Position numbers and translations under genes: made by a program
Notes under the pieces: generated by a model
What the model was told of the DNA's origin: nothing
Seen by the model: the letters and a program-made list of their open reading frames with translations, nothing else
The model's database searches: none
Assembly: GCA_965215975.1 (NCBI GenBank)
Contig: OZ244136.1
Coordinates: forward strand, 2,000,178-2,064,177
Length of the DNA stretch: 64,000 nt
From: Dehalococcoidia bacterium
GTDB lineage: Bacteria; Chloroflexota; Dehalococcoidia; Lucifugimonadales; UBA3495
Direction: 5' to 3'
In this document: positions 8,378 through 64,000 of the stretch, piece by piece
How positions within the stretch are numbered: the first letter of the stretch is position 1
Layout: every line of letters starts with the position of its first letter

Positions 8378-8449
8378 TCCTCGCTACTCTTGTTGACTCC
8401 AAGTATAGCCGCCCGCCCGGCCACCGCCACTTTCCGGCCAGATTTCTAG
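6542..8449 (-). mobile_element. IS1182/IS5-superfamily insertion sequence, copy 1 (1.9 kb)
   Basis: Imperfect terminal inverted repeats CTAGAAACCGGGCCGAAAAG (left) and CTAGAAATCTGGCCGGAAAG (right, reverse complement). CTAG is present at both ends (4-bp target duplication or terminal palindrome). It encodes one long DDE transposase. Confidence 0.9.
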
Positions 8450-14341: not shown

Positions 14342-15755
14342 TAGCACCGAACACCACGGGGGTGGGCAGCACGCTGGAATGTGGGTTTTCCCCAAGCTGG
14401 AAGAGATAACGTCCGACGTCTCGGGCAAGACCTTTTCCATGCCCTCCGGATACAAGCTGGCCTTGGGGATAGCCTTTATACTGACAGCCCTTGGAGTGGT
14501 TGGCTTCTTTATCCGCGCTACCACCGACGGCTTTGGCGAAACCGGACCTTGGGGCTACTACGCAGGAATCTTCTCTTTCATCTTTATGGTAACCGGGGCG
14601 GCCCCCCTGGTGGCGGCGGCTTTCCGGTTCACCAAAAGCCACTGGCGGCGTCCCGTGTCCCGGGTAGCGGAGTTGTTCGCCGTCGTGGGCGTGGTTAACG
14701 TTGTCCTTTTCATTCCCCTGATGCTGGCAATGCCGCCGATTAAGAATCCGGAAGTGGTCGGTTCCGAGCTTGAGGTGCGCCGCACCCTGTGGTTTGAGGT
14801 TCCCATCGGCGCTCCATATTATTGGGACTTCCTTTGCTTCGTGGGGCTGGCCTTCTGCAGCATGGCGATACTGTGGCTTTCAGCCACGCCGGACATGGCC
14901 CAGGCCCGCGCAACGGCGACAGGCTTCCGCCGCGGACTTTATTCCGCGCTTGCCGGCTGGTGGTACGGGACCAAGCGGCAGTGGAACCATCAGAAGGCGG
15001 GCCTTGCCTTGCTGGGCGCCTTCTACTTCATGCTGCTGATTTTCGTGCAGTTTATTTTCGTCACCGAGTTTGCCATGAGCATGGTGCCGGGCTGGAAGGA
15101 CTCGGTACTGCCCCCCATGTACACGGTGATGGGCTTCCAGACCTCACTGGGGCTGATCCTGATAGTCCTGTTCGTGATGCGCAAGTGGGGCGGGTACGAG
15201 ACCTACCTGGGCAAGTCGCCTTTCTGGTCAGCCAGCAAGATTCTTCTGGGCCTGACCCTGCTCTGGACTTATCACCTGTTTGCGTTCTTTATTACTTATT
15301 GGTATGGCCGCCTGGAGGTGGAGCAGAATATTCTCAAGTACGTGTTCACCCAGCCTTACCTGCTGGTGTTCCTGGCGAATATGCTGTTCAGCTTCCTGGT
15401 CCCCTTCCTGATGCTTATCTGGAATCCCTTGCGCCGCAGCGCCTGGGGGCCGTCCCTGGCGGGCCTGTCTGCTCTGTTTGGGTCACTGCTGTTTAACCTC
15501 AGGACTTTCGTGGCAGGATTCAACGTGGAAAACCATTATGAGTTCGCCCTGTCCCACGTCGCGCCGGCTGTTTTGCCCGACATATGGGATATATGCATAG
15601 TCCTGGGCGGTCTGGGGCTAGTTGCACTGGTGTATTTGCTGGCAGCCAAGGTCATCCCCTTAATGTCCATCTGGGAAGTGAAGGAAGGGACCCTCTACCA
15701 GAAATGGGAGCCCTTTGTCCACAGTGAGTACCTGGTACTGGGCAAGCCGGAATAA
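14334..15755 (+). CDS. NrfD-family polytopic membrane subunit (ActF/ActC-like)
   Basis: ~470 aa, about 10 hydrophobic helices, PsrC/NrfD-like. The ATG at 14334 overlaps the actB2 stop. Confidence 0.75.
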   Translation: MASSTEHHGGGQHAGMWVFPKLEEITSDVSGKTFSMPSGYKLALGIAFILTALGVVGFFIRATTDGFGETGPWGYYAGIFSFIFMVTGAAPLVAAAFRFTKSHWRRPVSRVAELFAVVGVVNVVLFIPLMLAMPPIKNPEVVGSELEVRRTLWFEVPIGAPYYWDFLCFVGLAFCSMAILWLSATPDMAQARATATGFRRGLYSALAGWWYGTKRQWNHQKAGLALLGAFYFMLLIFVQFIFVTEFAMSMVPGWKDSVLPPMYTVMGFQTSLGLILIVLFVMRKWGGYETYLGKSPFWSASKILLGLTLLWTYHLFAFFITYWYGRLEVEQNILKYVFTQPYLLVFLANMLFSFLVPFLMLIWNPLRRSAWGPSLAGLSALFGSLLFNLRTFVAGFNVENHYEFALSHVAPAVLPDIWDICIVLGGLGLVALVYLLAAKVIPLMSIWEVKEGTLYQKWEPFVHSEYLVLGKPE

Positions 15756-15871
15756 TCAGTCCGGAAAGTCAAACGAAATAGATTATAGATAAAGGGACGG
15801 GGATTGACCCGTTGATTGGGGCCGCTGTAGGGGCCCCGGAACCAAGCAAAGGAAGGTAAGCAGGAGCTTCC

Positions 15872-17248
15872 ATGCAGGAAGGCAGAGTCCTAAGTACAAG
15901 AGAAGTGAACCGGGATTTGCTCCGGTCAATCCTGGATACACCCCGGTGGTTCTGGCCGGTGGTGACGGTCCTTGGCCTGATCCTGCTGGTGGCCTCCATC
16001 GCCATCGGCATTATGGTCAATCGGGGCCTGGGCGTTACGGGCCTGAACCGTCCGGTGGCATGGGGCTTCTTCATCACAAATTTCGTGTTTTGGATCGGTA
16101 TCAGCCACGCCGGCGTGATGCTTTCCGCGATTTTGCGGTTGGCCAAAGCTGAATGGCGTCGGCCAGCCACCCGCGCCGCCGAGGTCTTGACCCTGTTCTC
16201 CCTGATGACGGCGATGATTATGCCCATCGTCCACACCGGTCGGCCCTGGCGCATCCTTTACTGGGTGTTTCCTTATGACTTTGCCCGCGGCATTTGGCCC
16301 AACATCCGGACGCCGCTGGTCTGGGACCCCAGCGCAATTCTGACCTACCTGACCTCCAGCACCCTGTTCGTTGTCATCGCCCTGGTTCCCGACTTTGCGG
16401 TGCTGCGGGATCACACCACTGGCATTGCCCACCGGGTATATTCCGTGCTGGCCATGGGCTGGGAGGGTAACGCCCGGCAATGGAAGCTGCAAATTTTGGC
16501 CGGTGTGCTGCTGTCGGCGCTGATCCTGCCCGTGTTCGTCTCGGTGCACAGCATAGTGTCCTGGGACTTCGGTATGGCGGCGTCGGTCAAGTCCTGGCAC
16601 TCCACCGTGTTCGCTCCCTACTTCGTGGTTGGCGCTGTCCACTCTGGCGTGTCGGCAGTGGCCTTCGTTCTCATCCTGCTGCGCTGGTGCTACGGCTGGC
16701 AGGACTACATCCGCCACGAGCACATCGACGCCCTGGGACGGTTGCTCATAGTGGTGGCTACGGGCTGGTTCTACTTCCTGGTCATGGAGATCGTGTTCGG
16801 CATGTACGGGCGGGAAGCAGACGAGTTGATGGTCAGGCAGACCCAGTTTACGTACTGGCCCTACAATGCGTGGTTCATCATATTCATCGTTACCACGTAC
16901 TTCATACCCGTGATACTGTGGCTGAGCCGGGCTTGGCGGCGCAACCTGTGGATAATGTCTCTGGCGTGTATCTCGGTAAACATCGGCATGTGGCTGGAGC
17001 GTTTCCTGATTATCGTGCCGGGCCTTATTAACAAGCAATTGTTCACCTTCGTGTGGGCCGATTACAGGCCCAGCATATTCGAGATAATCATCGTGGCGTC
17101 AACATTTGCCCTGGTGACCATGTTGATGCTCCTGTTCAGCCGCGTGTTCCCCCTGGTACCGTTGTACGACGTGAAGGAAGGGGATGTGCTGAAGACCCGG
17201 ATACAGATAGGTCGCCGGACGGTTCCGGCAACATTCAGAGAAGATTAG
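15872..17248 (+). CDS. actC: ACIII ActC, NrfD-like quinol-binding membrane subunit
   Basis: Conserved N-terminal region ...VAWGFFITNFVFWIGISHAGVMLSAILRLAKAEWRRP... typical of ActC as I recall it. Confidence 0.8.
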   Translation: MQEGRVLSTREVNRDLLRSILDTPRWFWPVVTVLGLILLVASIAIGIMVNRGLGVTGLNRPVAWGFFITNFVFWIGISHAGVMLSAILRLAKAEWRRPATRAAEVLTLFSLMTAMIMPIVHTGRPWRILYWVFPYDFARGIWPNIRTPLVWDPSAILTYLTSSTLFVVIALVPDFAVLRDHTTGIAHRVYSVLAMGWEGNARQWKLQILAGVLLSALILPVFVSVHSIVSWDFGMAASVKSWHSTVFAPYFVVGAVHSGVSAVAFVLILLRWCYGWQDYIRHEHIDALGRLLIVVATGWFYFLVMEIVFGMYGREADELMVRQTQFTYWPYNAWFIIFIVTTYFIPVILWLSRAWRRNLWIMSLACISVNIGMWLERFLIIVPGLINKQLFTFVWADYRPSIFEIIIVASTFALVTMLMLLFSRVFPLVPLYDVKEGDVLKTRIQIGRRTVPATFRED

Positions 17249-19471: not shown

Positions 19472-20692
19472 ATGAACTCCAGGGAATACGACATCGTAAT
19501 CATTGGGGGAGGCATTATCGGCCTTTCCACGGCCATGCAACTAGCCCGCCGGTTTCCCCAGGGCTGCAGCATTGCCGTGCTGGAGAAGGAGAAGGACCTG
19601 GCCACCCACCAGACCGGCCACAACAGCGGCGTAATTCACTCGGGGATCTATTACCGGCCGGGCTCCCAGAAGTCCCAGTTCTGCGTGGGCGGGGCCCAGG
19701 CCCTGATGCGGTTCTGCGACGAGAACGAAATCGAGTACGACCAATGCGGTAAGACCATCGTGGCCACCGAAGAGTCGGAACTGCCCCGGCTGGATAACCT
19801 GTACGAGCGCGGCGTGGCCAACGGGGTGCAGGGGCTGGAAATGATCGGTCCGGAGCGACTGCAGGAAATTGAGCCTCACACCTTCGGACTACAGGCTTTG
19901 TGGTCTCCCACCACCGGAATCATTGACTACGTAAAGGTCAGCGAGGCCTACGCGTCCAGGTTCCAGGACAGCGGCGGCGACATCTACATGGACGCCGCGG
20001 TCAGGTCCATCGGAGGCTCCGCCGGCGCCATGACCATCGACACCTCCCGGGGGTCGGTGCGGGCGGCCCACGTAATCAACTGCGCCGGTCTCTACGCCGA
20101 CCGCATCGCCGAGATGATGGGGGAGCGGACCGGCGTTCGCATCATTCCCTTCCGGGGGGAGTACTATACCCTGAGACCGGAAAGCCAACACCTGGTAAAG
20201 GGCTTGATTTATCCGGTTCCCGACCCCCGGTTCCCCTTCCTCGGCGTCCACTACACCCGCAACATTCACGGCTACGTGGAAGCCGGCCCCAATGCCGTCC
20301 TCGCCTTCGCGCGGGAGGGCTACCGCAAGAGCAATGTGGACCTGGGAGAGTCGGTGGGAACCTTCACTTATCCCGGCTTCTGGAAGATGACCGCCAAACA
20401 CTGGCGCACCGGCGTGTCGGAGATGCACCGTTCCTACAGCAAGAACGTGTTTGTCCACGACCTGCAAAAGCTGATCCCCGAAATCAGGGACGAGGACCTG
20501 GCCCCGGGAGGCTCCGGTGTGCGGGCGCAGGCGGTGGCCACCGACGGGGCTCTGCTGGACGATTTCTCAATACTCCAGGGGCAGCAGGCCATCCACGTGC
20601 TGAACGCGCCGTCCCCCGGGGCCACATCGTCCCTGTCCATCGGCCAGCACATCATGAACCTGGCGGTGGAAAGCTTCGAACTTGAAGGGTAG
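19472..20692 (+). CDS. lhgO: L-2-hydroxyglutarate oxidase/dehydrogenase (FAD-dependent)
   Basis: N-terminal FAD fold DIVIIGGGIIGLSTA. Overall LhgO/YgaF-like sequence (HQTGHNSGVIHSGIYY). Confidence 0.85.
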   Translation: MNSREYDIVIIGGGIIGLSTAMQLARRFPQGCSIAVLEKEKDLATHQTGHNSGVIHSGIYYRPGSQKSQFCVGGAQALMRFCDENEIEYDQCGKTIVATEESELPRLDNLYERGVANGVQGLEMIGPERLQEIEPHTFGLQALWSPTTGIIDYVKVSEAYASRFQDSGGDIYMDAAVRSIGGSAGAMTIDTSRGSVRAAHVINCAGLYADRIAEMMGERTGVRIIPFRGEYYTLRPESQHLVKGLIYPVPDPRFPFLGVHYTRNIHGYVEAGPNAVLAFAREGYRKSNVDLGESVGTFTYPGFWKMTAKHWRTGVSEMHRSYSKNVFVHDLQKLIPEIRDEDLAPGGSGVRAQAVATDGALLDDFSILQGQQAIHVLNAPSPGATSSLSIGQHIMNLAVESFELEG

Positions 20693-51891: not shown

Positions 51892-52359
51892 CTCAAGTAA
51901 TAAGAATCACTCAAATGGCGGGCCAATCTTGCCAACAATCATGTCGCCCTGAGCCTGCCGAAGGAGCTACTTTCGCCCCTTTTCAAATACAACATACCTC
52001 AGTCTCAGTCTCAGTTACCACTTTCTTCTCTTAGGATACAGGAGGCTTTTTGGCTGTTGTCCGATTTAATGACGGGAACATGCGACCCAACACACCAACG
52101 TCGGTTTGGCTAGTGGTTGACCTTCCGAGTCGAGCAGCTGTAATAGCGGAAAAATCAGAAAAAGCAAAGCAATGGTGGAATACGCCAAACAATGGGTTGG
52201 GGAAGCTGGTAAGAACATCAGCCCTGGTGAACGACACCAGGTTGAGTCAGGTCAGGCCGAGACTAGCAAACTGACGATATCAGTTAATGTAAGTTAGCGC
52301 GCTTCAGCGGTTGTCCTGTTTCTCTTGCCATGAAACAGTTGTTGAACTCGTCGGGCCCC

Positions 52360-52500
52360 TGGCATTACAACGACGAGTTGAAAGTAGAAGAACAGATTCT
52401 GCCACGCGCTGATTGTGAACGGTTCCCAAGTCAGAATACTCTTCGGCACTCCGACACGAAGCCACAGGCGGCGTTAGTTAAAGCCGACTCTATAATGCTA
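52360..52500. mobile_element. Degenerate copy (C) of the TA-flanked ~150-bp element
   Basis: The left end GCATTACAACGACG shares 12 consecutive nt with copies A and B. The right end CGACTCTATAATGC-TA-G is a weaker match. It abuts the stop codon of the next gene. Confidence 0.4.
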
Positions 52501-53433
52501 GGCCAGCGTCAGGGTAGAGGCGGGAAATAACTCTTCAGGATCGACCTTTTCAGGGATTACCCCTTGTTCGACATTGAATCGAACGAAGGTTTCCAGCGTC
52601 TTGCGGGAACTTTCGAACCCATAAGGGATCGGATCATCCCCCACTACCTCAGCCATTTTCAGCAGGGCCCGGTCCGCCTGGCTCGGATGGTCACCGGAGT
52701 GCAGGCCCTCGATGTAGTGGCTCTTGGCCGTCTTGAACACCTCGAACAACTCTTGCTCAAGGCCGGGATTTGCCTCCAGCCGCGCGTTCTTGACCACCAC
52801 CATATGGCTTATAGGATAAATTCCAGTCTTTTGGTGCCAGGCGTCGTCGGCCGCGTCCGGCTCCGAGAACAGGGGTTGGACATCGGGCGAGTCGACCGGT
52901 CCCGCACCAATTGCGGCGTCTATCTCTCCGGAGAGCAGCATTTCCCCCAGGTCCCCATTGGGGGACGACACCACATTCGGTGGCGCGACGAATTCGGCGA
53001 CGTGTTCATCGCCGGACAAAACCCAGGTTACGGCTTCCAGGTCCACACCGTACTCGGTTTGCAGGATGCCCCGTGTCCAAACCCCGGGAGTAAGCGTGTA
53101 GCTGCGCAGTCCTACCTTCCGCCCTTCCAGGTCTTTGGGTGACGTAATTCCACTGCGCGTATTGTGTACCAGCCCTCCGTGGTAGAAGGCCCGAGTCAAA
53201 AAGACGGGTATTCCAGTAAAAGGCTTCCCGTGGGCGCGGGCGCACATGTACGTCGAAAGGGCCATCTCCGCAACGTCGAACTCCAGACCGCGCACCATGC
53301 GCCGGAAAATGCTGACCACGGGGGACACTTCGATATGTTCCATGCTAAACATCGCCGAGGCGATGGTTCCGTCCTTCAACGGTGTCGTGTGACCGTAGCT
53401 ACCCACGGCTGTCCGCAATACCAAGTCTGTCAT
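52498..53433 (-). CDS. 4,5-dihydroxyphthalate decarboxylase-like / periplasmic-binding-fold protein
   Basis: The pattern ...FDVAEMALSTYMCARAHGKPFTGIPVFLTRAFYHGGL...DLEGRKVGLRSYTLTPGVWTRGIL... resembles the PhtD-like family, from memory. Confidence 0.6.
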   Translation of the reverse strand: MTDLVLRTAVGSYGHTTPLKDGTIASAMFSMEHIEVSPVVSIFRRMVRGLEFDVAEMALSTYMCARAHGKPFTGIPVFLTRAFYHGGLVHNTRSGITSPKDLEGRKVGLRSYTLTPGVWTRGILQTEYGVDLEAVTWVLSGDEHVAEFVAPPNVVSSPNGDLGEMLLSGEIDAAIGAGPVDSPDVQPLFSEPDAADDAWHQKTGIYPISHMVVVKNARLEANPGLEQELFEVFKTAKSHYIEGLHSGDHPSQADRALLKMAEVVGDDPIPYGFESSRKTLETFVRFNVEQGVIPEKVDPEELFPASTLTLA

Positions 53434-53608
53434 TATCTCAATCTCCTGGTCACTGACTCCTGCTGGTCATAGCCCAACAACAAGCTACTCTTGTTTCCGT
53501 CGGTTGGCAACACTCGCCGTGGGGCCGGAGTTCCTTTTAATGAACGCTATCCATCATCCCTGTTTCATTTTGTTGGCCGGTTATGGGCTGGCCCATCCTA
53601 AACCAAAG

Positions 53609-53755
53609 AGCCTGTCTCATAAGTATTTTCGCCAACGACTATCGTACTATTGTGAGGTTAAGAGAGAGCTAACCGACTATTTTGCACAGTAATATGTCCA
53701 AACAATTATCGATCATGCCGATTACAGTTAAGAGCTTTGACTTCTGAGACAGGCT
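53609..53755. mobile_element. 147-bp MITE nested in the left inverted repeat of the IS630-family element
   Basis: Perfect 11-bp terminal inverted repeats AGCCTGTCTCA / TGAGACAGGCT. Flanking 6-bp direct repeat CCAAAG (53603-53608 and 53756-53761). Confidence 0.7.
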
Positions 53756-54904
53756 CCAAAGCCAAGGTGGGATGTGCATTTGCCGGGTGATGGGGATCGG
53801 GTCGGGGGTCTTGCAGGAGTGCTTCGGCCGTTGACTGCAGTACCGTCCGGCAGCGGCGCCTAACCTCGTCTCTCCGGCTGGCCAGACCGGCCAGGAAGTT
53901 GCCGACCCTCTCCTGCACCGCAGCCCTGCTCCCCAGGCAGAGATTGCCGGTGGCCTCCTCTCTGGTCCAGCCCCAGATGGCCTCATCGGCGTTGAAGTCC
54001 GGGCTGTACCCCGGCAGGTTCACCAACCGCAAGCCCAGCCCAGGCGTCCTGAGGTACTCCCGCATCGCCTCGCCACGATGGGCCGGCGCGTTGTCCCAGA
54101 TGACCCGCATCGGCCCCGGATGCCTTTCTCTCAGTTGTTCCAGGAAGGCAACCGAGGTCCCACTGTTGCTGTTGCCCTCCAGTTCCATCCATTCCACCTC
54201 GCCCGTCTCCAGGCACACCGCCGAATAGTAGCTGGCCTTCTCCCCATACCGCGGGCTGGTCGAGTCCACCAAAGCAGGTTTGCCCTTCAGCACCCACTTG
54301 CCCCGCAGTTCCGCATCGGCCCGGAAGTGGGCCTCATCAGCAAAGAATATTCTGGCTTCCTTCCGACCAGCCTACTCCCTCAGAGCGGCGTACTCCGCCA
54401 CGAAAGCCTCCCGCTTCGCCTCGTCCGCCTTGAGCAGGCGTTTCTTGGGACGCTTGAAGGCAAACCCCAGCCGGTGCAGCCAGTTCACACAACTGCTGCG
54501 GCTCAACCCAATGCCGAACCGCTCCCCGGCAAACCGCCGCACCACCTTCCAATACCAGTTGGCCAGATCGATGCCCGAGGCGCCGGGCGGTTCCTGTACC
54601 GCTGCCTTCAACTCCTCCTGCTGCGCTTGATCAAGGGCGGGGGGGAACCACCGGCCTGCTCGAATATCAAGGCTGCAGGTCCTCCCTCTCCGAAGGCCGA
54701 CGCCCATCGTCCTATGGTATGGGGGTCCCTTCCCAGAGTCTGCGCCGTGGCCGCTGCGGTCCAGCCCTGCGCCAGCAGCAGCAAGGCGTACCACCGCTCC
54801 CGCTCCCTGGGTGTGGGCGCCAAAATCATTCGCCGACGCAAGTCCTTGATTTCCATCTGCCACTGTTCCAGACACCGGTCTATCTCCCTCACGCCCATCA
54901 CCAA
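53706..54904 (-). pseudogene. IS630-family DDE transposase, disrupted
   Basis: The HTH part (54608-54904) is in a different frame from the middle part, with the shift at the G7 run 54639-54645. An in-frame TAG at 54372-54374 precedes the DDE_3 part (…VIWDNAPAHRG…NLPGYSPDFNADE…). Confidence 0.8.
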
Positions 54905-54988
54905 CCCCTCCCAACTCCCGACACCAGCTAACCGGGTTCCTTCACAAATTTACCCCTTCCCACTGCGCGCTTCACCTTGGCTTTGGTT

Positions 54989-55138
54989 TAGTATTACAAC
55001 GACGGATCGCAAGAAAGGGATCTTGAGTACCCTTCATAGCAACCTGCCCGCGCGCTCGATAGCTTTGTGGCCTTGCCTTCCGCGAAGCGATATCCAGTCT
55101 AAAACTCACCAAATTGAGGTAGCGTCGTTGTAATACTA
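54989..55138. mobile_element. TA-flanked ~150-bp inverted-repeat element, copy A
   Basis: Termini GTATTACAACGACG / CGTCGTTGTAATAC (14/14) bounded by TA. It lies inside the 3' end of the cache-domain gene. Confidence 0.65.
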
Positions 55139-55951
55139 GAGCGCCGGTATGGTCCGGGTTTGGGGCGGCGGTCTGCGGGTTCCGGAAGACGTAGGAAACC
55201 CACCTGCCCTCGGGCGGAGCGGCCAGCAGATTCGGCCCGAAGTTGTAGCCGTTGGCGTCGGTGCCCAGGCAGCCCTTCAGGTCCAGGCCCCTCAGGTGGG
55301 CTTCGTAGTGGCCGATGACCAGGTCGTTCTCATCGACGATGAAGAGGTGCCACTGGCCGTCCACGCTCTCCTCCCGGTTGTAGTGGGCCAGGGTGGCGGC
55401 GAGCCCGTCGGACTCGTAGCGGCTGATGGCATTTTGGACGAAGAACCTGGTGTAGGCGGCGGGGTCGGACCTGGGAGGAATCCGGGCCACAACGCTTTCC
55501 GCAACACCTTCCGAGATCCGCTGGATCTCTTCCTGGCTTGGACCTGCTTCCGGAACGCCGGCGATGTAGTCCAGGACGATCTGCTGGACCTGGGCCCTGG
55601 TGAGGCCCGGCTGCGAGTTCTGCAATTCCGGCGGTTCCGGAAGTTCTGACAGCGCTTCCTGGATTATTTCCTGGACCTGGGCGTTGGTCAGACCGGACTC
55701 GGTTTCGGAGGTGGAGGCAATGGCCTGCTGGATGGTCTCGCTGATCTCAGTGCGGGACGGCCTGGGTGAGGGCGGAGTCCTCCCCGGTGCAGGCTGCGGT
55801 CAGCACCGTGAGCAGGATGATGAGGACGGCGAAAGCTGCCTTCCGCCAGTTGGGATAGATCATGGGCGTTGTCCTTTGGGTTTGTTGTTGCTGAGCTGCG
55901 GCTCATGGTTGCCGGCTGTGGAACTGAATGGAACTGACGGGCAGAGATCTG

Positions 55952-57995
55952 CTACAGACCGCCAGGAGCATTTACCAGGTGGCTTAGATCATCAGCCACT
56001 CCGTCGTGGGTTAGGACCGCATCGTGGACGGAGCCGGCAACGATGGCACCGCCGTTCAGGGTCAGTTGGTTGGCATTGATTGCGATGCCGTCCGCATCGT
56101 TGTCACCCGCCTGGACGGTGTAACCGAACATTACCGCAGCGCCGCTGGTGCTGCGGTACTCCGCGGTCCGGGCGGTGCCGCCGATGTCCAGTTCCAGTTG
56201 CGGGGCGCCGGTGACGCTCACGTCCTCGCTGAAGGTGACGGTCGCCTGGACGGTATCCCCTGCAACGTAGGTGTCATCGTCTCCGGGATTGGAGGTGAGG
56301 GCGACGTCGGAGATGGTCGGCGCGGTCACGTCGGGCGGTGCCAGTTGACCGTTCACCTTGTGGTCGGGGTCCTCCCCCATGGTGACGGCTCCATAGTAGG
56401 GGTCGGGAACGTAGCTGATGTCGGTCCCGGCGGCCTTGATGTCCTGGGTGTAGGACATCAAGGCGTCTATGCCGTTTTCGTCCAGGTCATCCTCCACCAC
56501 CGTGTACTCGAATACCAGGGTGTCGGTGCCGTTGCCCGAGACGAAGGGGATATGTCGCTGGTCGATGGTGGACCCTATGCGGAGGGTCAGGAAAGTGACT
56601 GGGCCCGCGGTGACGTCCTGGCCGAAGTTCACGCTGGGCCGGATGACCTCGCCCCGTCCGTAGGTATCCTCCGCCGCCACCGGGGTGGAGAGGATGCGGA
56701 TTTCCTTCGGGTAGGGCCGTCCGTCCAGCTTGTGGCCCGACTGGTTGAACAGCCCGGTGAACTTTGCCGGTACCAAGATGTCGGTGCCCTTGACCTTGAT
56801 GGTGCCAGGGCCGCCCCAGCCCTTCCGGACGTCGTCCTCGACGTAGCTTCTCTGGATGGTGATGCCGTCCTGGTCCAGGTCCCTGGACTGGACGGTATAT
56901 CCGAACATCAGGGTGGTTGGTGCCGGTGCCGGATTGGTACCAGACGCCGCGCCACCAGTCGTCGTCTCCGTCGCCGACCCGTGCGTTCAGGTGCTTGAGG
57001 CCGTTAACTTTGACTTCGGCGCTTAGGGTGAGGGCGACCAGAATGGTCTCGCCGTAGCGGTATTTGACGCCGTCCTCTGGCTCGGAGATGATCTCCATGC
57101 CGGTGCCGATGGGGGTCAGGCTGCCGTTAACCTTGTGGTCGGGCTGATTGTCGATGCCGTCATAGGCCTGGTAGGCAATGATCGGGGTTCCCGCAGCCGT
57201 GACGGCGTCATGGTTCAGGAAGTTGAACCAGTTACTTAATATGCCCTTGTCGACGCCGGGTATTTTGATGCCGTTCCAGTCTCTTTCCCCGGACTGGACG
57301 GTGTAGCCGAATACAAGGGTGTCGGAGCCGGAGCCCCGCAGGTAGTAGGCGATCCACCAGTTGCTGCCGATCTGGATTCCCAGGCCGGGGTTGTCTTCCA
57401 CTTCCACGCTGGTGTTGACGTCCACGCTGGTGCTGAAGGTGGCTTCAATCTCAATGGTTTCCCCAACGCCGTAGGTGTTGTTGTCGCGGGCCGGTTCGGA
57501 GATTATCTCGAGGCCGGTGATGTTGGGGTCGTTGTCGAGGATGGTGATCTCGCACCTGTTGTCCCGGGCTGGGTCGTCTTGGTCCACCACGTTGTCGGTG
57601 GGGGTGAAGCGGACCGTGAAGGTCTCGTTGCCCTCCAGGAGAGCATCATCCAGGGTGCTGAAGGTGCGCTTGGCCCGGTTGGCCTCGCTCTCGGAGTCGT
57701 TGGCCACGATTTGGCCAGAATCCTGGGCGACGTAGTCGTCGGCGCCGGCGGTGCCGGCGTCGGTGTGCCAGTTGGCGGAGAAGGTGTTGTCGTGCTGGTG
57801 GTCGCTGACCCGGACCAGGTAGACGTCAAAGTCCTCGCCCTCACGGACCTCAGTGGTCGGGCATTCCAGGTAGAACTCGGCGGTGTCGGCGCTGGCCGGG
57901 GCCGGTTGCAGCAGGGCAGTCAGGCCGATTAGCCCCATCAGTCCAGCCAGGGTGGCCAGAGCAAGTATTCCAGGTGCTCGGGTTCGTTTTTTCAT
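55952..57995 (-). pseudogene. Secreted Calx-beta / repeat-domain surface protein, frameshifted
   Basis: Signal peptide MKKRTRAPGILALATLAGLMGL..., a Calx-beta-like domain, then four repeats ending ...TLVFGYTVQ... The reading frame switches at 56909-56918 (C-run). Removing one C restores GTGTNHLMFGYTVQ. Confidence 0.7.
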
Positions 57996-58089
57996 CGTAT
58001 TCCTCCTGTGATCCGATTGAGCCCTCTTGATGGGGGCTTATTGGGGGTCATGCCGGTTTAGCGTGCAGGTGACGTCTGAGGCGGTGGAC

Positions 58090-58520
58090 CCTTTTCTTTG
58101 CTCTGATTCCTCTAATTTCTCCGGGCGGTTGCTTTGCACTGCTTTCGCTGTAGATATAAAAAGACCATTCTCTTGATGGTAATGGCCCTGCAGTGGCCCT
58201 GTTAGGGCCGTTTGTACAGACATTTGTGGGGGCAATCTGTTGCTCGAATGGTTGGCAAAGTGGTTGCCATCGAGCCTGTACGTTTTGGCAACTGTCTATT
58301 GAGAATGGTTGTCCTCGGACGTGGTGCGACGGCACAGTTCTCATGGGTCTGGTTGGCGCAGCTGGCGACGGGGGTTGACCGGACAGGAAGCGCTTTGCTA
58401 GGTGAGTTACCCTGCCTGGCGGGGCCCGGGTGGTGGCTGGCAAAGCAAAACGCCCCGCGCCGAAACGGCGTGGGGCGTCCACGACATACTGCCGGAAGCA
58501 GGACCTTGCCGGTCCCGGAG
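58090..58520. repeat. Conserved ~0.4-kb noncoding element, copy 1 (upstream of the 57995 surface-protein gene)
   Basis: Aligns with 62890-63265. Shared hairpins GGCCCT-GTT-AGGGCC (58195-58209), CCCCGCGCCG-AAA-CGGCGTGGGG (58453-58475) and GGACC-N5-GGTCC (58501-58515). Confidence 0.6.
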
Positions 58521-58653
58521 AGCCTAACGTCCGGCAGGGTTCCGTTTGCTTTTGGGGTTTACGGGGGCAGTCTGAATCGGAGCAAACCCCACTACCGAAC
58601 GAAACCACCTGCCCTGGAGGCTTGTAAAATGCACTGCAGGGAGGTCGAAACCC

Positions 58654-58902
58654 GTGGTAACGCTGTGCAAAGGTGGTCCCAACATATACCCGACCTGGCT
58701 ACCCAAGCTGATAGCCGGCCTCGACCAATGCGAGTGGAAGATGTGGTTCCAGGTACACCACGACGGCAGGACCCTGGGAAGCGACTTCAACCTGATCCGC
58801 TACAGCATCGAGCATACCGAGCTGGTGCGCTTCAGCACCGACGAGAACGAGCAGCCCGGCTTCACAGTAACGGTGAAGGCCCAGAACCAGTTCAAGTTGT
58901 AG
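58654..58902 (+). CDS. Small hypothetical protein
   Basis: 82-aa ORF with GC3-rich codon usage (…FNLIRYSIEHTELVRFSTDENEQPGFTVTVKAQNQFKL) followed by a GGGAC…GTCCC hairpin. No motif recognised. Confidence 0.35.
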   Translation: MVTLCKGGPNIYPTWLPKLIAGLDQCEWKMWFQVHHDGRTLGSDFNLIRYSIEHTELVRFSTDENEQPGFTVTVKAQNQFKL

Positions 58903-59000
58903 GTGGCGAAAGGGACCTCTCCGGAAGTCCCGACATCGTCACCTGGCGGGACGAGGAGGCCATGATCGTGGCCGCCAAGGCGGCCAAATGTTCCTGCAAG

Positions 59001-62000
59001 TCAGTCGTCCAGTTCACTCAAAGACACCTTGTAGGTCCCTATAGTCGTGAAACGCCTGTAAGTACGTTCAAGGTTGGAGTGATAGTTGTCGTAATCCTCC
59101 TGGTTGCTCCCCAGTATGTAGATATCATCCCCCCAGATCGACACGAAGTGCTTCCCGCTGGCGTCGGGCCGGGAATCCCAGCTCATCTCACTCCCGTCTG
59201 CAACGTGGCCCTCCGCAGGACTTCCGTCCGCGCCATAGATGCCGTGGATCTTGCCGTAGCCCATGGTGAACTCGCTTGATGCCTGGAACGCTCCGGTGAT
59301 GGCGATGCGGTAGTCGTGACCGGCGGTCAGTTCCAGAGCGAACCAGTCCTGGTCACCCACCGTTTCTATTTCTGCCTGGATGGATGCACCCACCTGCACC
59401 TGCCCGGTAGTGTTGGTGAAGTTGGCAAAGTCGTCGTCTTCACCGGAACTGTACTCGGTGAGAAACAGGGAATACGTGCCCTGGGCGCCGCGTCCGACGG
59501 AAGTACCGTCCCAGTCGATCCGCTTGTAGGCGCTGGCCTCGATGTAGTGGCGCCCGGTGCTCGTGGGAGTGAATACCACCCTGGCATTGCCTCCCACGCC
59601 CGAGTCGTCATCCCTGGTCCAGCGGACCGACGAGCCGGCGGCATCGAATATCCCGGTGATGGCGGTGTTGGTCAGCGTGCCGTGTTCGGTAGGCCGGCCC
59701 TTGTGCTCGATCCAGTAGGTTTGCCCTGAGGTAAGTTGGGTGGCGAACCAGTCGCGGTCGCCGGTGAACTCAATTTCCCCGGTCCTGGAACCGTTGACCG
59801 TGATGGTTCCGGTGGTATTGGTACTGCGGGCGTAGTCGTCTCTTTGATAGCGGGTCTGATACCTGAGGTTGTATGAGTTGCTGCCATTGCCCACGGCCTG
59901 GACCCGTATATAGTACGTTCCGCGCTCCACGGAGATTTCGAACCACCTGTCCGTGGCCCAACTGGAATCACGGATCTTCAGCCTCCTGCCCTTCGTGTCC
60001 TCCAGGTACAGGCCGGCATCCACGTCCAGGTCCTCGAGCCACACCGTCACCTTCTTGGCCCTGCTGACCGTGAATTTGTAATAGTCAACCGTGTCTTCCC
60101 CCCGGTTAACGGTGTCTTGTCTTGTCCGACCCGAACCTTGGTTGGTGATGTCGCCCAGGTTGTTGGCGGTGTCGCGAGTTGAGTCCGGGTCCGGGGTAGG
60201 GTCGTTGTCGTGGATGGAGATGGTGGTTTGGGCGTTAGTTTCTGCGCTTACGCGGTCCGGGAGGGTGCCAAAGCTGAGGGCAACGCTCTCCCCGTCGTCG
60301 TCATCGGCGTCGTCCGTCGCGGTTACGGTGAAGGTGGCCTCGGTGCCCCCCGAGACGATTGAAACGCTGTCAGGCATGCCGGTGAGGTCCTCGTCGGTGG
60401 CGCCGTCCTGGTTGGCACGGGTGATCGGGATGGTGAGCTCGCGCTCAGGGTCGGCGCTGAGGTTCACGGTGACGGTGGCGGAGCCGCCCTCGCTGAGGCC
60501 GTAAGTGGACGTCTCGAAGCTGACGGTCACTGCAGGTGGCGCCGCCGGGACCGTGACGTTCACCTGGTTGCTCTGGAGACTGAGGCCGTCCTGGTTTCGG
60601 GCCCTGATGCGGTAGATGTACCTGCCCTCAGGCTCCACGCTATCGTCAAAGTAGCGGGTGTCCGCACTCCCAGTATCGTCCACGAGGACTGAGAGCGTCG
60701 GTTCGTCGGCTTGATTGCGTCTGAGTATCTGGTAGCTGGTGATGGTGTCGTCGTCAGGCTGGTCCCAGGACAGGGTGACCGAGGTGGGCGCAGCCGTAGC
60801 GGACAGGCCCGACGGAGCATCAGGGGGATCGGCAAGAGGCTCGGGCGGTTCTTCCGCCTCCCGTAACTCCGCCACCTTGTCGGCGGCGGGTTCGGCCACG
60901 CCGTAGCGCAGCACATACACGTTCTCGCCGGCCTCCTGCGCTTCCACCCGGATGAAGTAGCCGCCTTCCAGTATCGTACGGGTGATGGCCTCGTTGGCCG
61001 TGCCGCTCTTGCGAGACCGCGTTATGGTCTCGCCCTCACTGTCCTCTAATGACAGGTCCGCGTTGAAGTCCAGCTGCTTGACGCCGATAGTGACCCGGTT
61101 GGGTTCGGCCAGCGTGAACCGGAAGTAGTCGATGCTGTCGTCACCGCCGTCGATAGTGTACTTCGGGAACTGGACCTCGCTCAGGCCGGTGATGTAGCCC
61201 AGGTCGTTGGCTCCCTCCCTGGTGGCATCTTCGTCCGTGGCCTGCGGCGTTGCCTGGGGCTCCGGCTCGTCGTTGTCGGTGATGGATACCGTGGCCTGGT
61301 TCGTGGCGCCGGCGTTACCCGCCCGGACAGATTGCCCAGGGCCAGCACCAGACTTTCGCCGTCATCGTCCTCACCGTCGTCGGTGGCCGTTATGGTGATC
61401 GTAAGGCGGGTGTCTCCGCTGTTGAAGGTGACCTCCGACGGGACGGCGGAATAGTCGGAGTACGACGCGCCGTCCTGGTTGGACACGGTCAGCGGTATCG
61501 TCACGGAGCGTTCCGGGTCTACGTCTAGCAGGATGGCGACGGATACGTTCTGGCCCTCGCCGACTGTGTAGGTCGCCTGCTCGAAGGACACGGTGACCGC
61601 TGGCGGCTGGGGCGTCTCCACCTCGAAGTGGTTGCTCTGTCCGCTCAGGCCGGCTTCGTTTCGGGCCCTGACTGCGTAGACATAGGTGGTTCCAGGTTCC
61701 ACGTAGTCGTCGGTGTAGGAGAGGCTGGCGCTGCCGGTGTCGGGTACCAGGGTCTCAAAGTCTGACCCTTCCTGCCGCAGGACCTGGTAGCCGGTGATGG
61801 TCTCATCGTTGGGATCGTCCCAGGTCAGGGACACTGCCTTGTGGGTCGCGGCGCCGCTCAGGCCGGTGGGGCTGGCCGGTAGCTCTGGCTCCGGAGATTC
61901 CGGCAGGTTGGCGTCGAAGAAGTTGCTCATGGAGCTGAGTCCGGCCTCGTTCCTGGCCTTCACTCGGTAGGTGTCCCGGCCCTCGGCCTGGACGTCGGTG

Positions 62001-62495
62001 TCGGTGGCGGTGTAGGCGGTGGCGGTGGAGTCGGTGTCGTCCACCAGGACGGAGAAGTCTCCCGCATCCTGGGTCTGGCGATCCCGCCTCAGCACCTGGT
62101 AGCCGGTGGGGTCGGCTCCTCCTTTGGGGGCGTCCCAGCTGAGTTGTACTTGGTCGTGGCTGACGGTACCGGTCAGGTTCCTTGGCTTGTTCGGTGGCTC
62201 CGCCTCTTCCGTTTCCTCTGCTGCTGCCATCACGGTGACGGTGACGACGTTGCTTCACGGGCCATTGCTGCCGCTGTACCGGGCCCTCACCCTGGCCTTA
62301 ATCGTTGAGGGCGGGGGTTGGGCACGTCCCACTGCAAGGACATGGCGCCTGGCGTCGTGCTGCTGGCGCTCAGGCCGGAGATGGCCCCTTCCTCCTGCTG
62401 GGCGACGGCGGTACCGCTGACGGTAAGTGCCAGAAGGATTGTCAGGACTGCCCCCAGGGCTATCGCCAGGCAGATGCCGGCGGCCTGCGATTTTG
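59001..62495 (-). pseudogene. Giant secreted FN3 / Calx-beta / PPC-domain surface protein, multiply disrupted
   Basis: Signal-like AAGICLAIALGAVLTILLALTVSGTAVAQQ near 62400-62495. Frameshift at the C/G5 run 62313-62317, in-frame TGA at 62255-62257 (expected GPWS), and frameshift at 61316-61325 (G-run). Otherwise it is a continuous series of FN3, Calx-beta and pre-peptidase C-terminal-like domains down to 59001. Confidence 0.7.
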
Positions 62496-62889
62496 TCCCT
62501 GACGCAGTGGTTAGCTTCTGTATTGCTGGTCTTCCCCGTTTTGATGTGGATGGCTTGAAGGGGCCCGGTTTTTCGGGCCGGGGGTGGTCCGCTTTCTGGC
62601 CCCATGGATTTGTGTGGGTTGGCTGCCTGGCACAAGCTGGCGCCGGTCAGGTCCGGCGCCAACTGTTTCCATGAAGAGTGTCATGGATGTTACGGCCCTG
62701 CTGGCCGTCTCGGGTTTGGCTATCCTGGCGAGTGAAGGCTGGATTGCCTTCTTTGTTTCACGTGGTGGATACGCTGTTAGCGCTGGTGGTTTTGTCGCTA
62801 TTCGAGGCAAGCCGTCTCTGATGGCTGGGGGACTCTGCTGGCCTGGTCCCTTCGTAAGCTGCTCCAGAAGGGCCTGTGGCCTGGGCTTC

Positions 62890-63265
62890 TGTTTCCTTTG
62901 CTGCCCTTGGTCTCTCTGGGACGATCTGAAATGCTTTCGCGGTAGCTATAAGCCTATTGCAGTGATGATAATGGCCTAGCAGTGGCCCTGTTAGGGCCGT
63001 TTGTACAAACGTTTGGGTGGTATTCTGTTGCTTGAACGGTTGACAAAACGCTTGCCATTTGGCCTGTACGTTTTGGCAATTCTCTTCTGAACTGGCGCAA
63101 CGGCGCAGTTGGCGACGGGGGTTGAGTGGACCGGAAGCTCTTTGCCAGGGGAGTTCCCCTGCCTGGCGTGGCCAGGCTGGTGGCGGGCAGAGCAAAACGC
63201 CCCGCGCCGAAACGGCGTGGGGAGTCCACGACATACTGCCGGAAGCAGGACCTCGAAGGTCCCTA
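62890..63265. repeat. Conserved ~0.4-kb noncoding element, copy 2 (upstream of the giant surface-protein gene)
   Basis: The same three hairpins at 62984-62998, 63200-63222 and 63248-63262. It is about 41 nt shorter than copy 1 in the middle. Confidence 0.6.
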
Positions 63266-63589
63266 CGACCTTGACTTTGAGGGCGCGTCCCCGGGGGAAC
63301 GCAATGGTATAGCTAGACTCATGGCCAATGGTGCACTAATCACCATTGGCGCCTACGACTGGTGTAGCCTCCAACTATTTCAGCCGGGCAGTCCGTAGAT
63401 TTACTCTGCGGGCTGTTTACGTTGCCCGCGTCTTTGATTGAGGCCGGGATATACCTCGCATGTCAGTAATGGTCTGACACCCAAGCTGCGTTACCCGCGA
63501 TCAGGGCATGCTGGTTGCCCCGTTTTCAGGCTTTGACTGCCTTATTTTGTCCGGCGTTTTGGTTGTAAAGAGAGGGCGGTATCAGGTCC

Positions 63590-63740
63590 TACTATTACAA
63601 CGACGGTTTGGAGAAAAATATGGCTGATGCTTCCTGTCTGACTCTGAATGACTTGTGGTTACAGGCTTGCGGCGGTGATTGCCCAGCTACAGTTTCGCGT
63701 CAAGAATGGCCGTGCCTGATAAACCGTCATTGTAGTACTA
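63590..63740. mobile_element. TA-flanked ~150-bp inverted-repeat element, copy B
   Basis: Termini CTATTACAACGACGG / CCGTCATTGTAGTAC (12/15 complementary) bounded by TA. Its right TA+G forms the CTAG used by IS copy 2. Confidence 0.6.
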
Positions 63741-64000
63741 GAAATCTGGCCGGAAAGTGGCGGTGGCCGGGCGGGCGGCTATACTTGGAGTCAACAAGAG
63801 TAGCGAGGGCGGAGAATGCTGGGAGAGCGATCGGACCAGAGGGGCCTCTGGGAAGCGGACCGGTTGTATCTGGACCACGTGGGGCGGGACACCTTCTACG
63901 GTCTGCTGGCATCACTGCGGGGCCGGCTGTTCCGGGACGCGGATTTCGCCGAGTTCTACTGCCCGGACAACGGCCGGGACAGCGTGCCGCCCAGCCTGCT
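63738..64000 (+). mobile_element. IS1182/IS5-superfamily insertion sequence, copy 2 (left part; continues beyond window)
   Basis: Starts CTAGAAATCTGGCCGGAAAGTGGCGG..., the reverse complement of the copy-1 right end. Roughly 95% identical to copy 1 over the visible 263 bp, by eye. Confidence 0.9.
63816..64000 (+). CDS. Transposase of IS copy 2, N-terminal fragment
   Basis: MLGERSDQRGLWEADRLYLDHVGRDTFYGLLASLRGRLFRDADFAEFYCPDNGRDSVPPSL matches the copy-1 transposase N-terminus (which starts MIVLGERS). Confidence 0.85.
   Translation, partial: MLGERSDQRGLWEADRLYLDHVGRDTFYGLLASLRGRLFRDADFAEFYCPDNGRDSVPPSL

Follow-up and report, generated by a model that had tools for sequence, protein, structure and literature searches.

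Three mobile elements of three IS families nested in an apparently truncated pseudogene for a putative cache-domain lipoprotein in a Dehalococcoidia bacterium

Three mobile elements belonging to three different IS families are nested one within another in the genome of a Dehalococcoidia bacterium (Chloroflexota), within a 64,000-nucleotide stretch of DNA that was analyzed as a whole and is referred to below as the window. The best overall explanation, which we consider probable, is a nest of three IS families in a cache-domain lipoprotein pseudogene, followed by a later rearrangement of one flank. Each element landed here because its own target sequence was present, and the locus is ordinary transposon biology with one notable detail, namely a small element that targets the end of another transposon. 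All three elements are new members of known families, and the sole moderately novel point is the targeting of a terminal repeat by an IS1182-type element and its MITE. The locus illustrates how transposon nests arise from target specificity alone, and for the host it is without functional effect, since the gene concerned was dead beforehand.

In the history that the sequences show, a 144-bp IS701-family MITE (E150) first entered a mid-gene CTAG spanning the Leu-Glu codons of ...HTGAL/EYK..., with duplication of the CTAG. A 1235-bp IS630-family IS then entered the left CTAG copy of this MITE and duplicated its TA, and a 147-bp IS1182-family MITE (M147) in turn entered the left inverted repeat (IR) of the IS, between its positions 8 and 9. 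In a fourth step, the original left flank of the IS may have been replaced by the leader of a neighboring gene. The junction sequences bear out the three nested layers in the order proposed by the first-pass annotation, from the 150-bp element through the IS to the 147-bp MITE. When the IS is removed in silico, the duplication around E150 reads CTAG/CTAG; E150 is placed before the IS because the reverse order would need TTAG/CTAG. Nor are the three elements chance resemblances, since each family is multi-copy (84 unique full-length copies of the IS, ~22 short and five long copies in the 150-bp family, and five of the 147-bp element). The insertions of the earlier three-step history and their order thus stand, and its completeness does not, as a further event is needed to account for the truncated host gene. 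Coordinates of the features are collected in Table 1. No Rfam match was found in 52000-56000.

Table 1. Features of the nest and its surroundings, in window coordinates.
Feature	Position	Strand	Remarks
E150c, third, degenerate copy of the IS701-type MITE family	52363-52497	.	
Leader of the 4,5-dihydroxyphthalate-decarboxylase-like gene (52498-53433)	53434-53600	-	includes the C-TA left flank of the IS
Left CTAG duplication of E150, split by the IS	C-TA 53598-53600 and TA-G 54989-54991		
TA duplicates of the IS630-family IS	53599-53600 and 54989-54990		inside the left CTAG copy of E150
IS630-family IS	53601-54988	- (transposase)	1235 bp without the layer-3 insert
Split left IR of the IS, outer 8 bp (AACCAAAG)	53601-53608	+	inner half CCAAGGTG at 53762-53769
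CCAAAG duplicates flanking M147	53603-53608 and 53756-53761		
M147, 147-bp IS1182-family MITE	53609-53755	.	between positions 8 and 9 of the IS630-type IR
In-frame TAG in orfB	54372-54374	-	copy-specific nonsense mutation
Putative recoding site, G7 (C7 on the coding strand)	54639-54645	-	joins orfA (54608-54898) to orfB, -1 frame
Intact right IR of the IS	54973-54988		exact reverse complement of the rebuilt left IR
E150, 144-bp IS701-family MITE	54992-55135	.	right CTAG duplication 55136-55139
Cache-domain lipoprotein pseudogene body	55139-55751	-	ends ...NPDHTGAL within the first domain
Lipoprotein signal-peptide ORF (MIYPNWRKAAFAVLIILLTVLTAAC...)	55747-55863	-	same gene, other frame (three-frame translation)
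E150b, second copy of the IS701-type MITE family	63593-63737	.	right CTAG duplication 63738-63741

Removal of 53609-53755 together with one CCAAAG copy rebuilds perfect 16-bp IRs (AACCAAAGCCAAGGTG) and a 1235-bp IS with TA at both ends. Its transposase scores 192.1 bits on NCBIfam NF033545 (cut-off 100) and contains the Pfam domains DDE_3, HTH_23, HTH_29, and HTH_33, in agreement with the IS630-family assignment made earlier. Related genomes hold 84 unique full-length copies that align to 1-1235 with identical termini; the ends proposed from the window alone are thereby confirmed, differing ends in other copies having been named in advance as a possible refutation. These copies have the 16-bp IRs in common, and 83 of the 84 have TA on both sides. 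Their target context is C-TA-G, with C at -3 in 84/84 copies and G at +3 in 82/84, and TAG flanks 280 of 291 IS630-type IR termini. Relatives carry the IS in high copy number, with a total of >540 tblastn matches and, in one genome, at least 40 near-identical copies. It shares with IS630 of Shigella sonnei and with ISY100 a transposase combining HTH and DDE_3 domains, short terminal IRs, and a TA duplication; IS630 itself reportedly has a CTAG core target (Tenzen et al. 1990, as cited in PMC2170065). ISY100 inserts at TA, and the N-terminal HTH domain of its transposase binds the terminal IRs (PMC2170065). The present IS differs from both as a new 1235-bp element from uncultured Dehalococcoidia with the IR AACCAAAGCCAAGGTG, with a transposase whose two parts meet at a conserved C7 tract and need a -1 shift to be joined, and with a transposase stop codon formed together with the target TA.

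The frameshift at the G7 run was initially taken as damage, a reading that does not hold, as 61 of 78 IS copies share C7 with no stops in either part. The motif GGTTCCCCCCCGCCCTTGA is conserved, and copies with C8, C14, or C17 have both parts in one frame. Judged from these sequences, the frameshift is the conserved two-ORF state of the family, with a putative -1 recoding or slippage site, and not a lesion. Both frameshifting and transcriptional slippage have precedents within the IS630 family (PMC5009743). An IS630-family element of Roseiflexus, from the same phylum, has a transposase that likewise needs recoding at a homopolymer-containing motif; there the motif is T5C5 with an upstream RNA hairpin, and one C is lost (PMC5009743), whereas the present motif, TTC7, would call for the gain of one base or, alternatively, for a -1 ribosomal shift. 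The lesson for annotation is that when a frameshift at a homopolymer is conserved in an IS630-type transposase, it should not be counted among the lesions of a pseudogene. The in-frame TAG was rightly called a lesion, since GAG occupies this codon in nearly all other copies, and this copy of the IS is in all appearance disabled by it. The left IR is in addition split by 153 bp, which probably disables the IS as well.

The host gene appears to be truncated at the element boundary, with ~143 codons missing. All 119 homologues run past GAL, by a median of 143 residues, so that the earlier placement of the nest five codons before the stop is not tenable; only two of the 119 end within 10 residues of GAL, both with frameshifted tails. 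Orthologues ending differently from the reconstructed C-terminus had been named in advance as a refutation of the earlier history, and this is what is observed. The cache homologues (312-367 aa, with sCache/dCache Pfam matches) continue with EYKHVWVVRHDGLLFASGW and a second domain. The end of the first domain and the whole second domain are absent from the host gene, and the missing half was not found anywhere in the window. The host-gene fragment in the window gives no Pfam match at E<0.01, and the full-length homologue P0015 matches dCache_2, sCache_2, and sCache_3_2 just above the cut-offs. A 5' frameshift separates the signal peptide from the body of the gene, and the signal-peptide ORF is called as a separate 38-aa gene on seven contigs (L001-L007, 99.8% identical). 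The closest cache homologue, P0043 (73% identity), lies in a context that is not syntenic, and no intact orthologous cache locus was present in any fetched locus.

To the left of the nest, the spurious ‘GWASP-stop’ at 53581-53598 is leader DNA of the neighboring decarboxylase-like gene. Contig L207 is 95% identical up to exactly 53600/53601, at the IS-proximal TA, and then continues into unrelated DNA. The leader has no similarity to cache-gene homologues, and an exact look-up of the decarboxylase-like protein found nothing on record. Because the host gene is truncated and the left flank is the leader of its neighbor, a fourth event is needed, which may have been IS-IS recombination, a deletion, or an assembly chimera. 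The likeliest course would be homologous recombination with a second copy of the same IS located at the C-TA in the leader, which would yield a deletion or an inversion. No reciprocal recombination product was found, and contig L206 (94% protein identity) departs from the window sequence 73 bp short of the junction and is uninformative on it. An inversion of 53601-63589 relative to L207 was considered on the basis of a leader in L207 that is 72% similar to 63182-63468, and was rejected as unproven because the two leaders are only as alike as paralogues and no IS630-type copy lies at the far boundary.

The seven 99.8%-identical metagenome contigs all break inside the IS and leave the junction 53600/53601 without independent support, and the discontinuity of the flank could therefore be an assembly chimera at the repeat, with two IS copies collapsed, their unrelated flanks fused, and the 3' half of the cache gene lying after another copy of the IS. 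Such a collapse would be favored by the high copy number of the IS in relatives, and it would fit the fact that short-read contigs of the same population all stop inside the IS. However, the records of this clade are dominated by long-read MAGs, which normally bridge a repeat of 1.4 kb, the layer-3 MITE in the left IR and the TAG occur in the same copy with no sequence seam, and L207 also has no cache gene here, so that a real rearrangement in the lineage is needed anyway. We consider a chimera unlikely and retain a genuine rearrangement of the left flank.

M147, the last arrival in the nest, carries IRs that are perfect over 11 bp, extend to 12 bp counting G/C, and reach 17 bp at 94%. The family comprises five copies, every one exactly 147 bp, and the earlier description of a 147-bp element with 11-bp perfect IRs is confirmed in the sequence. 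Six parents of 1651-1688 bp share the termini AGCCTGTCTCA with the five M147 copies. P0244, a transposase of the parents, reaches 360.7 bits on NF033551 (cut-off 270), and the coding sequence of the parent copy at L013 falls into two ORFs (223.5 and 90.7 bits). M147 shares only its terminal 15-16 bp with the parent, and the common insertion site lends indirect support to the idea that the IS1182-type parent transposase may mobilize M147. A metagenome scan with the M147 terminus AGCYTGYCTCAGAAGT gave one true copy (L174) among the matches listed, the rest being almost all chance matches, and two viral-contig scans gave only chance matches or unrelated conserved phage sequence.

All 11 insertions found (window, L042, L046, L047, L174, L013, L281, L280, L278/279, L282, and L283) occupy the same nucleotide of the IS630-type IR, AACYAAA(G)^...CCAAGGTG, and insertions of M147 and its parent occur in both orientations and at both ends of the IS. 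In the sample, an IR context surrounds only 20% of all CYAAAG hexamers, and for the first six insertions a score of 6/6 by chance has P ~6e-5, a value that uses the hexamer frequency of the sample itself, which is small and biased. The census loci were chosen for IS630-type copies or IS1182-type parents, which inflates the share of IR targets. Duplications beside IS1182-type insertions are imperfect in several copies and may be 4, 5, or 6 bp long. The 6-bp CCAAAG duplication reported earlier is correct for the copy in the window, while across copies a 4-bp YAAA plus a variable adjoining base fits best.

The shared site might also reflect descent, with one ancient insertion of M147 spread by its carrier IS. 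All hosts carry the same 16-bp repeat, which makes propagation by the IS possible in principle, and the sample is biased towards IS neighborhoods. Yet the insertions lie at the transposase-3' end in some loci (window, L174, L281, L283, L280, and L282) and at the 5' end in others (L046 and L013), with both orientations found relative to the tip of the repeat; one sits in a short IS-derived MITE (L042), and full-length IS1182-type parents occupy the same site. A split repeat should moreover hinder propagation of the carrier IS. Descent from one insertion is on these grounds very unlikely, and repeated targeting of the terminal repeat is preferred.

We lean, by a modest degree, towards reading the IS1182-type element and M147 as ‘hyperparasites’ of the IS630-type IS. 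The transposase would recognize the IR, which would offer a harmless landing site, and the insertions would disable copies of a high-copy IS; as part of the same reading, the insertion point would lie between the cleavage tip of the IR and its presumed transposase-binding part. To our knowledge, no IS1182-type DDE transposase has been described that targets the terminal repeats of other ISs. In a related subfamily (82% identical), the site used is a different one, which contains CCAAGG and lies beside other IS630-type genes; this hints that target specificity evolves along with the host element. If confirmed, the targeting would amount to a naturally occurring system of sequence-specific insertion, and it would naturally curb the spread of IS630-type elements in the IS-rich genomes of Dehalococcoidia.

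Two known systems resemble this behavior. IS1272 of Staphylococcus, itself of the IS1182 family, is reported to choose inverted-repeat structures as targets (PMC5678879). The present target is instead one fixed nucleotide in the IR of another IS, which is neither a hairpin nor replaced, and the present element makes a short duplication. IS4321/IS5075-like elements insert in a single orientation and make no duplication, whereas both orientations and a short duplication are seen here; the behavior is similar, and the present element is not a member of that family. According to the title of Partridge and Hall 2003, as given in PMC11208160, the preferred target of IS4321/IS5075-like elements is a fixed position in the IR of a different transposon. 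These elements use an IS110/IS1111-type DEDD recombinase, which in the IS110 family works with a bridge RNA (PMC11208160); the present element has a DDE IS1182-type transposase and is accompanied by a MITE derivative.

The first layer of the nest is an IS701-family MITE with a 4-bp CTAG duplication. The stretch 54989-55138 has 16-bp perfect arms, TA included, and the 150-bp inverted-repeat element described earlier therefore exists with its arms; its supposed TA duplication gives way to a true duplication of 4 bp (YTAR), with the core at 54992-55135. E150 is small, non-coding, bounded by terminal IRs, and multi-copy, and it folds only via its terminal arms, with no Rfam match. The census of the family gave ~22 short copies (137-156 bp) and five long ones (~1460 bp) with the same termini GTATTACAACGACG. 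The duplication reads CTAA/CTAA at L011 and L054, TTAG/TTAG at L067 and L023, and CTAG/CTAG elsewhere. The long parent encodes a 421-aa ORF scoring 366.6 bits on NF033540 (cut-off 150), and this match, the 4-bp YTAR duplication, and the length of ~1460 bp are shared with the IS701 family. Only the 14-16-bp termini are common to E150 and the parent; the interior of the MITE, in contrast, is unrelated to it and varies between subfamilies, at a constant length of 144-147 bp. Two further copies of the MITE family lie in the window. An IS1182-family IS starting at 63742 abuts the right CTAG of E150b, and E150c sits in a CTAG (52498-52501) that contains the stop codon of the decarboxylase-like gene, with its empty site CTGGTCTAGGG present in L206.

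The 8.7-kb segment from E150 (54992) to E150b (63737) could be imagined to have moved as a composite transposon via the outer MITE ends, carrying the 5' part of the cache gene to the CTAG by the decarboxylase leader and leaving the 3' part behind. CTAG stands at both outer borders, the inner border of E150 coincides exactly with the cut in the gene, and the homology to L207 ends at the site. But CTAG borders are uninformative where every element uses CTAG, the 43-nt flank beyond E150b in L001 and L002 differs from the far-side sequence expected from L207, and a second copy of the segment was not seen, which makes such a transfer highly improbable. Scarcely credible is a history that was complete with three insertions near the native stop of an intact gene. 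Excision does mechanically give ...NPDHTGALGWASP followed by a stop, with an open frame ending at 53581 and a CCTAGA site that fits both the CTAG and the TA target, but the restored GWASP-stop is not the native end: orthologues are ~143 residues longer, 119/119 homologues go beyond GAL and the two short ones are frameshifted, the DNA that contains GWASP shows 95% identity to the leader in L207, where no cache gene is adjacent, and the left C-TA is expected for any copy of this IS and is no proof of continuity. The preferred account thus remains the nest with a later rearrangement of its left flank.

CTAG is 4.3-fold depleted in these genomes (1379 observed against 5895 expected), and insertions pile up at element borders because CTAG is rare and CTAG-duplicating elements regenerate it at both of their borders. 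The clustering follows the target specificities of the elements, and the gene-level ‘hotspot’ of the first-pass annotation is not supported. Copies of the IS630-type IS abut E150-family borders elsewhere as well, on both sides at L021 and L022 and on one side at L024, L029, and L047. IS ends at E150 borders number 8-9, compared with ~5 expected if all CTAG sites were equal (P ~0.14). An extended TAC-TA-GTA preference of the IS was weighed as a possible explanation of the hotspot and rejected, as insertions at E150 borders do not significantly exceed the supply of CTAG at this P value. In a CTAG-poor genome, CTAG-duplicating elements create landing sites for all other CTAG-using elements. Plant Stowaway and Tourist MITEs insert into one another, and their borders recreate the preferred target; the present case differs in that it is bacterial and in that three unrelated families share or regenerate one tetranucleotide target. 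TAGTA flanks are enriched at the IS630-type IS, at 27% compared with ~8% of CTAG half-sites.

The nested insertion in the minus-strand cache-domain lipoprotein gene is real, largely ordinary, and was partly misread by the first-pass annotation. The junctions it described are present as placed, and each of the three nested elements is a new member of a known IS family. Nesting of MITEs and ISs is commonplace. Removing 53609–53755, the 147-bp MITE M147, together with one copy of CCAAAG restores the 16-bp terminal repeat AACCAAAGCCAAGGTG, the exact inverse of 54973–54988, and leaves a 1235-bp IS630-family IS with TA at each side. The first-inserted element, E150, has perfect 16-bp arms in 54989–55138, of which the TA is part. 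What stands out is that a DDE IS1182-type element, together with its MITE, targets terminal repeats.

M147 has four further 147-bp copies (L042, L046, L047 and L174), with conserved ends and diverged interiors. Elements of 1651–1688 bp share its AGCCTGTCTCA termini and encode IS1182-family transposases; that of one parent, P0244, scores 360.7 bits against NF033551 (cut-off 270). Counting M147 copies and parents at least 86% identical, 11/11 insertion events fall at one fixed nucleotide within IS630-type terminal repeats (AACYAAAG^...CCAAGGTG), in both orientations. Of the CYAAAG hexamers in the sample, only 20% are in this repeat context, and six of six would fall there by chance with P ~6e-5. 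These observations favor recognition of the IS630-type repeat itself by M147 and its parents over inheritance of all positions from a single insertion event. Members of this group resemble IS4321 and IS5075, placed in Tn21-family repeats by a title (Partridge and Hall 2003) cited in PMC11208160, in working on the terminal repeats of another transposon, and IS1272, an IS1182-family member reported to select inverted-repeat structures (PMC5678879), in having a repeat as target. What sets them apart from these systems is either the class of enzyme or what serves as target. The proposed 6-bp CCAAAG duplication is perfect at the window copy, but most copies are better accounted for by a 4-bp YAAA next to a base that varies. 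An 82%-identical, 1669-bp IS1182-type subfamily (L270–L276) duplicates CCAAGG in a different sequence beside IS630-type HTH genes. Several of its copies have one flank inverted (CCAAGG left, CCTTGG right), and these swapped flanks point to probable inversions by recombination between copies.

Features of the nest and related elements
Feature	Locus	Positions	Remark
E150 core	window	54992–55135	right duplication CTAG 55136–55139
E150-family member (E150b)	window	63593–63737	
E150-family copy, degenerate	window	52363–52497	
G7 run	window	54639–54645	
In-frame TAG	window	54372–54374	
1900-bp IS1182-family IS, full	window	6546–8445	
1900-bp IS1182-family IS, cut by window end	window	from 63742 (63738–64000 with CTAG)	adjoins right duplication of E150b
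IS630-repeat element, ~145 bp	L012	15539–15683	
IS630-repeat element, ~145 bp	L042	2014–2160	
IS630-repeat element, ~145 bp	L024	16654–16799	
IS630-repeat element, ~145 bp	L045	8561–8696	
IS630-repeat element, ~145 bp	L049	12358–12503	
IS630-repeat element, ~145 bp	L020	18897–19042	
M147/parent insertions	window, L174, L280, L281, L282, L283		transposase-3' end of IS
M147/parent insertions	L046, L013		5' end of IS
M147 insertion	L042		in short IS-derived MITE
M147 insertion	L047		in diverged repeat
M147/parent insertion	L278/279		tip side alone retained

The restored IS630 transposase scores 192 bits against NF033545 (cut-off 100) and carries Pfam DDE_3 and HTH domains. Scanning one genome per species with the protein as guide gave more than 540 relatives, every one in a Dehalococcoidia MAG, and 77 loci were kept. 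These loci contain 84 unique full-length copies, which match positions 1–1235 of the restored element and have the same termini, confirming the inferred ends and dispelling the possibility that other copies end differently. C stands at -3 in 84/84 copies and G at +3 in 82/84, and TAG follows 280/291 IS630-type repeat termini in 1.65 Mb; the target is C|TA|G, narrower than TA, with the TA duplicated. Since the element starts with A, the CTAG it uses is destroyed. The transposase frame has no stop within the IS: it ends ...PTLALV and terminates at a TAG across the left end (53598–53600), formed by the duplicated TA and the target G, so the stop codon is supplied by target choice. The ~145-bp elements bounded by IS630-type 16-bp repeats indicate that the IS has MITE derivatives of its own, and one IS630-derived MITE (L042, ~19905–20205) holds an M147 insertion. 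Further nesting is seen in L031, where a single copy (12358–13168 and 15747–16177) is split at about position 425–431 by a ~2.6-kb insert.

The G7 frameshift had been taken as damage. The motif GGTTCCCCCCCGCCCTTGA at this site is conserved among IS copies, and 61/78 scorable copies have C7 with both frame parts stop-free and orfB in the -1 frame; C8, C14 and C17 copies are rare and in frame. One genome holds at least 40 near-identical C7 copies at differing sites, indicating that C7 is the active form. IS630-family elements are known to use recoding, and a Roseiflexus (Chloroflexota) member does so by transcriptional slippage (PMC5009743). Together with the conserved C7 and open frames, this makes the frameshift part of the element's design and not damage. 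The in-frame TAG is a genuine lesion, as proposed: GAG occupies this codon in nearly all other copies. Across L008–L084 the tract ranges from C6 to C17; being hypermutable, it can convert a copy from split to fused transposase and back.

E150 is a MITE of an IS701-type family with ~22 short copies and five of ~1460 bp in related loci, all sharing its termini; the longer form encodes an IS701-family transposase (NF033540, 366.6 bits, cut-off 150; Pfam DDE_5). The inverted-repeat element described initially is present, but CTAA/CTAA and TTAG/TTAG flanks in other copies make the duplication 4 bp (YTAR), not TA. The IS interrupts E150's left CTAG (C-TA ... TA-G). MITE-first insertion gives a perfect CTAG/CTAG, whereas IS-first would require TTAG/CTAG, which fixes the proposed order of E150 before IS. 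The degenerate copy E150c (52363–52501) sits in the CTAG where the decarboxylase-like gene has its stop codon; its duplication regenerates TAG, so the gene remains intact. The site is empty in L206 (CTGGTCTAGGG) and filled, with CTAG on both sides, in L207.

Given the base composition, CTAG is under-represented 4.3-fold (1379 observed, 5895 expected; L008–L084 and the window, together 1.65 Mb), even though no fewer than three resident IS families target it. Its users are the IS701-type element and MITE, which duplicate it, the IS630-type element, which duplicates the TA inside it, and a 1900-bp IS1182-family IS (611-aa transposase, NF033551 312.8 bits), all of whose copies in the window and in six loci have CTAG flanks. 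A CTAG-duplicating element leaves a new CTAG at each border. IS630-type ends adjoin E150-family borders in L021 and L022 (both sides in each), L024, L029, L047 and the window. These 8–9 events, against ~5 expected with all CTAG equal (P ~0.14), require no hotspot beyond target supply.

Mechanical excision of all layers yields ...NPDHTGALGWASP-stop, previously read as the native end of the host gene. Its homologues, 312–367-aa lipoproteins with two cache-like domains, all continue past ...DHTGAL with EYKHVWVVRHDGLLFASGW and the second domain, running a median 143 residues beyond GAL (n=119); the only two of 119 ending nearby have frameshifted tails. The missing 3' part was not found anywhere in the window. 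Orthologues end differently from the reconstruction, which refutes the reading of this stop as native. The codons of 'GWASP-stop' belong to the leader of the neighboring decarboxylase-like gene. L207 is 95% identical over 52364–53601; homology stops exactly at the IS-proximal TA, beyond which L207 has a leader of unrelated sequence followed by a lipoprotein gene that is divergent. The two IS flanks do not form one target, so three insertions alone do not account for the locus and the three-step history is incomplete. The most economical reading of the fourth event is recombination between two copies of the high-copy IS, one of which would have lain at the MITE border and the other at C-TA in the leader. 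An assembly chimera at the left junction, consistent with every independent contig breaking inside the IS, is unlikely. A less favored alternative is that the E150...E150b segment moved by composite transposition, with which the 43-nt flank in L001/L002 does not fit. In these two metagenome contigs of the same population, positions 1–43 beyond E150b differ (GGAGCCGCGCGCATGG...) from the window, which has an IS1182-family IS after 63741; the cause is a difference between strains or else an assembly that broke at the repeat.

Besides its truncation, the host gene carries a 5' frameshift: its lipoprotein signal peptide (55747–55863) lies in another frame than the body, and seven metagenome contigs at 99.8% identity have it annotated as a 38-aa gene of its own. 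A ~160-bp repeat, 89.5% identical between 58355–58516 and 63102–63263, lies in the long leaders that precede paralogous genes for fn3/Calx-beta surface proteins; in L207 a lipoprotein gene is preceded by a leader 72–80% similar. The gene for a 648-aa fn3/PPC protein (59001–60947) is intact in the window, L003 and L004, and is called as 526 + 130 aa in L001/L002, a strain-level frameshift.
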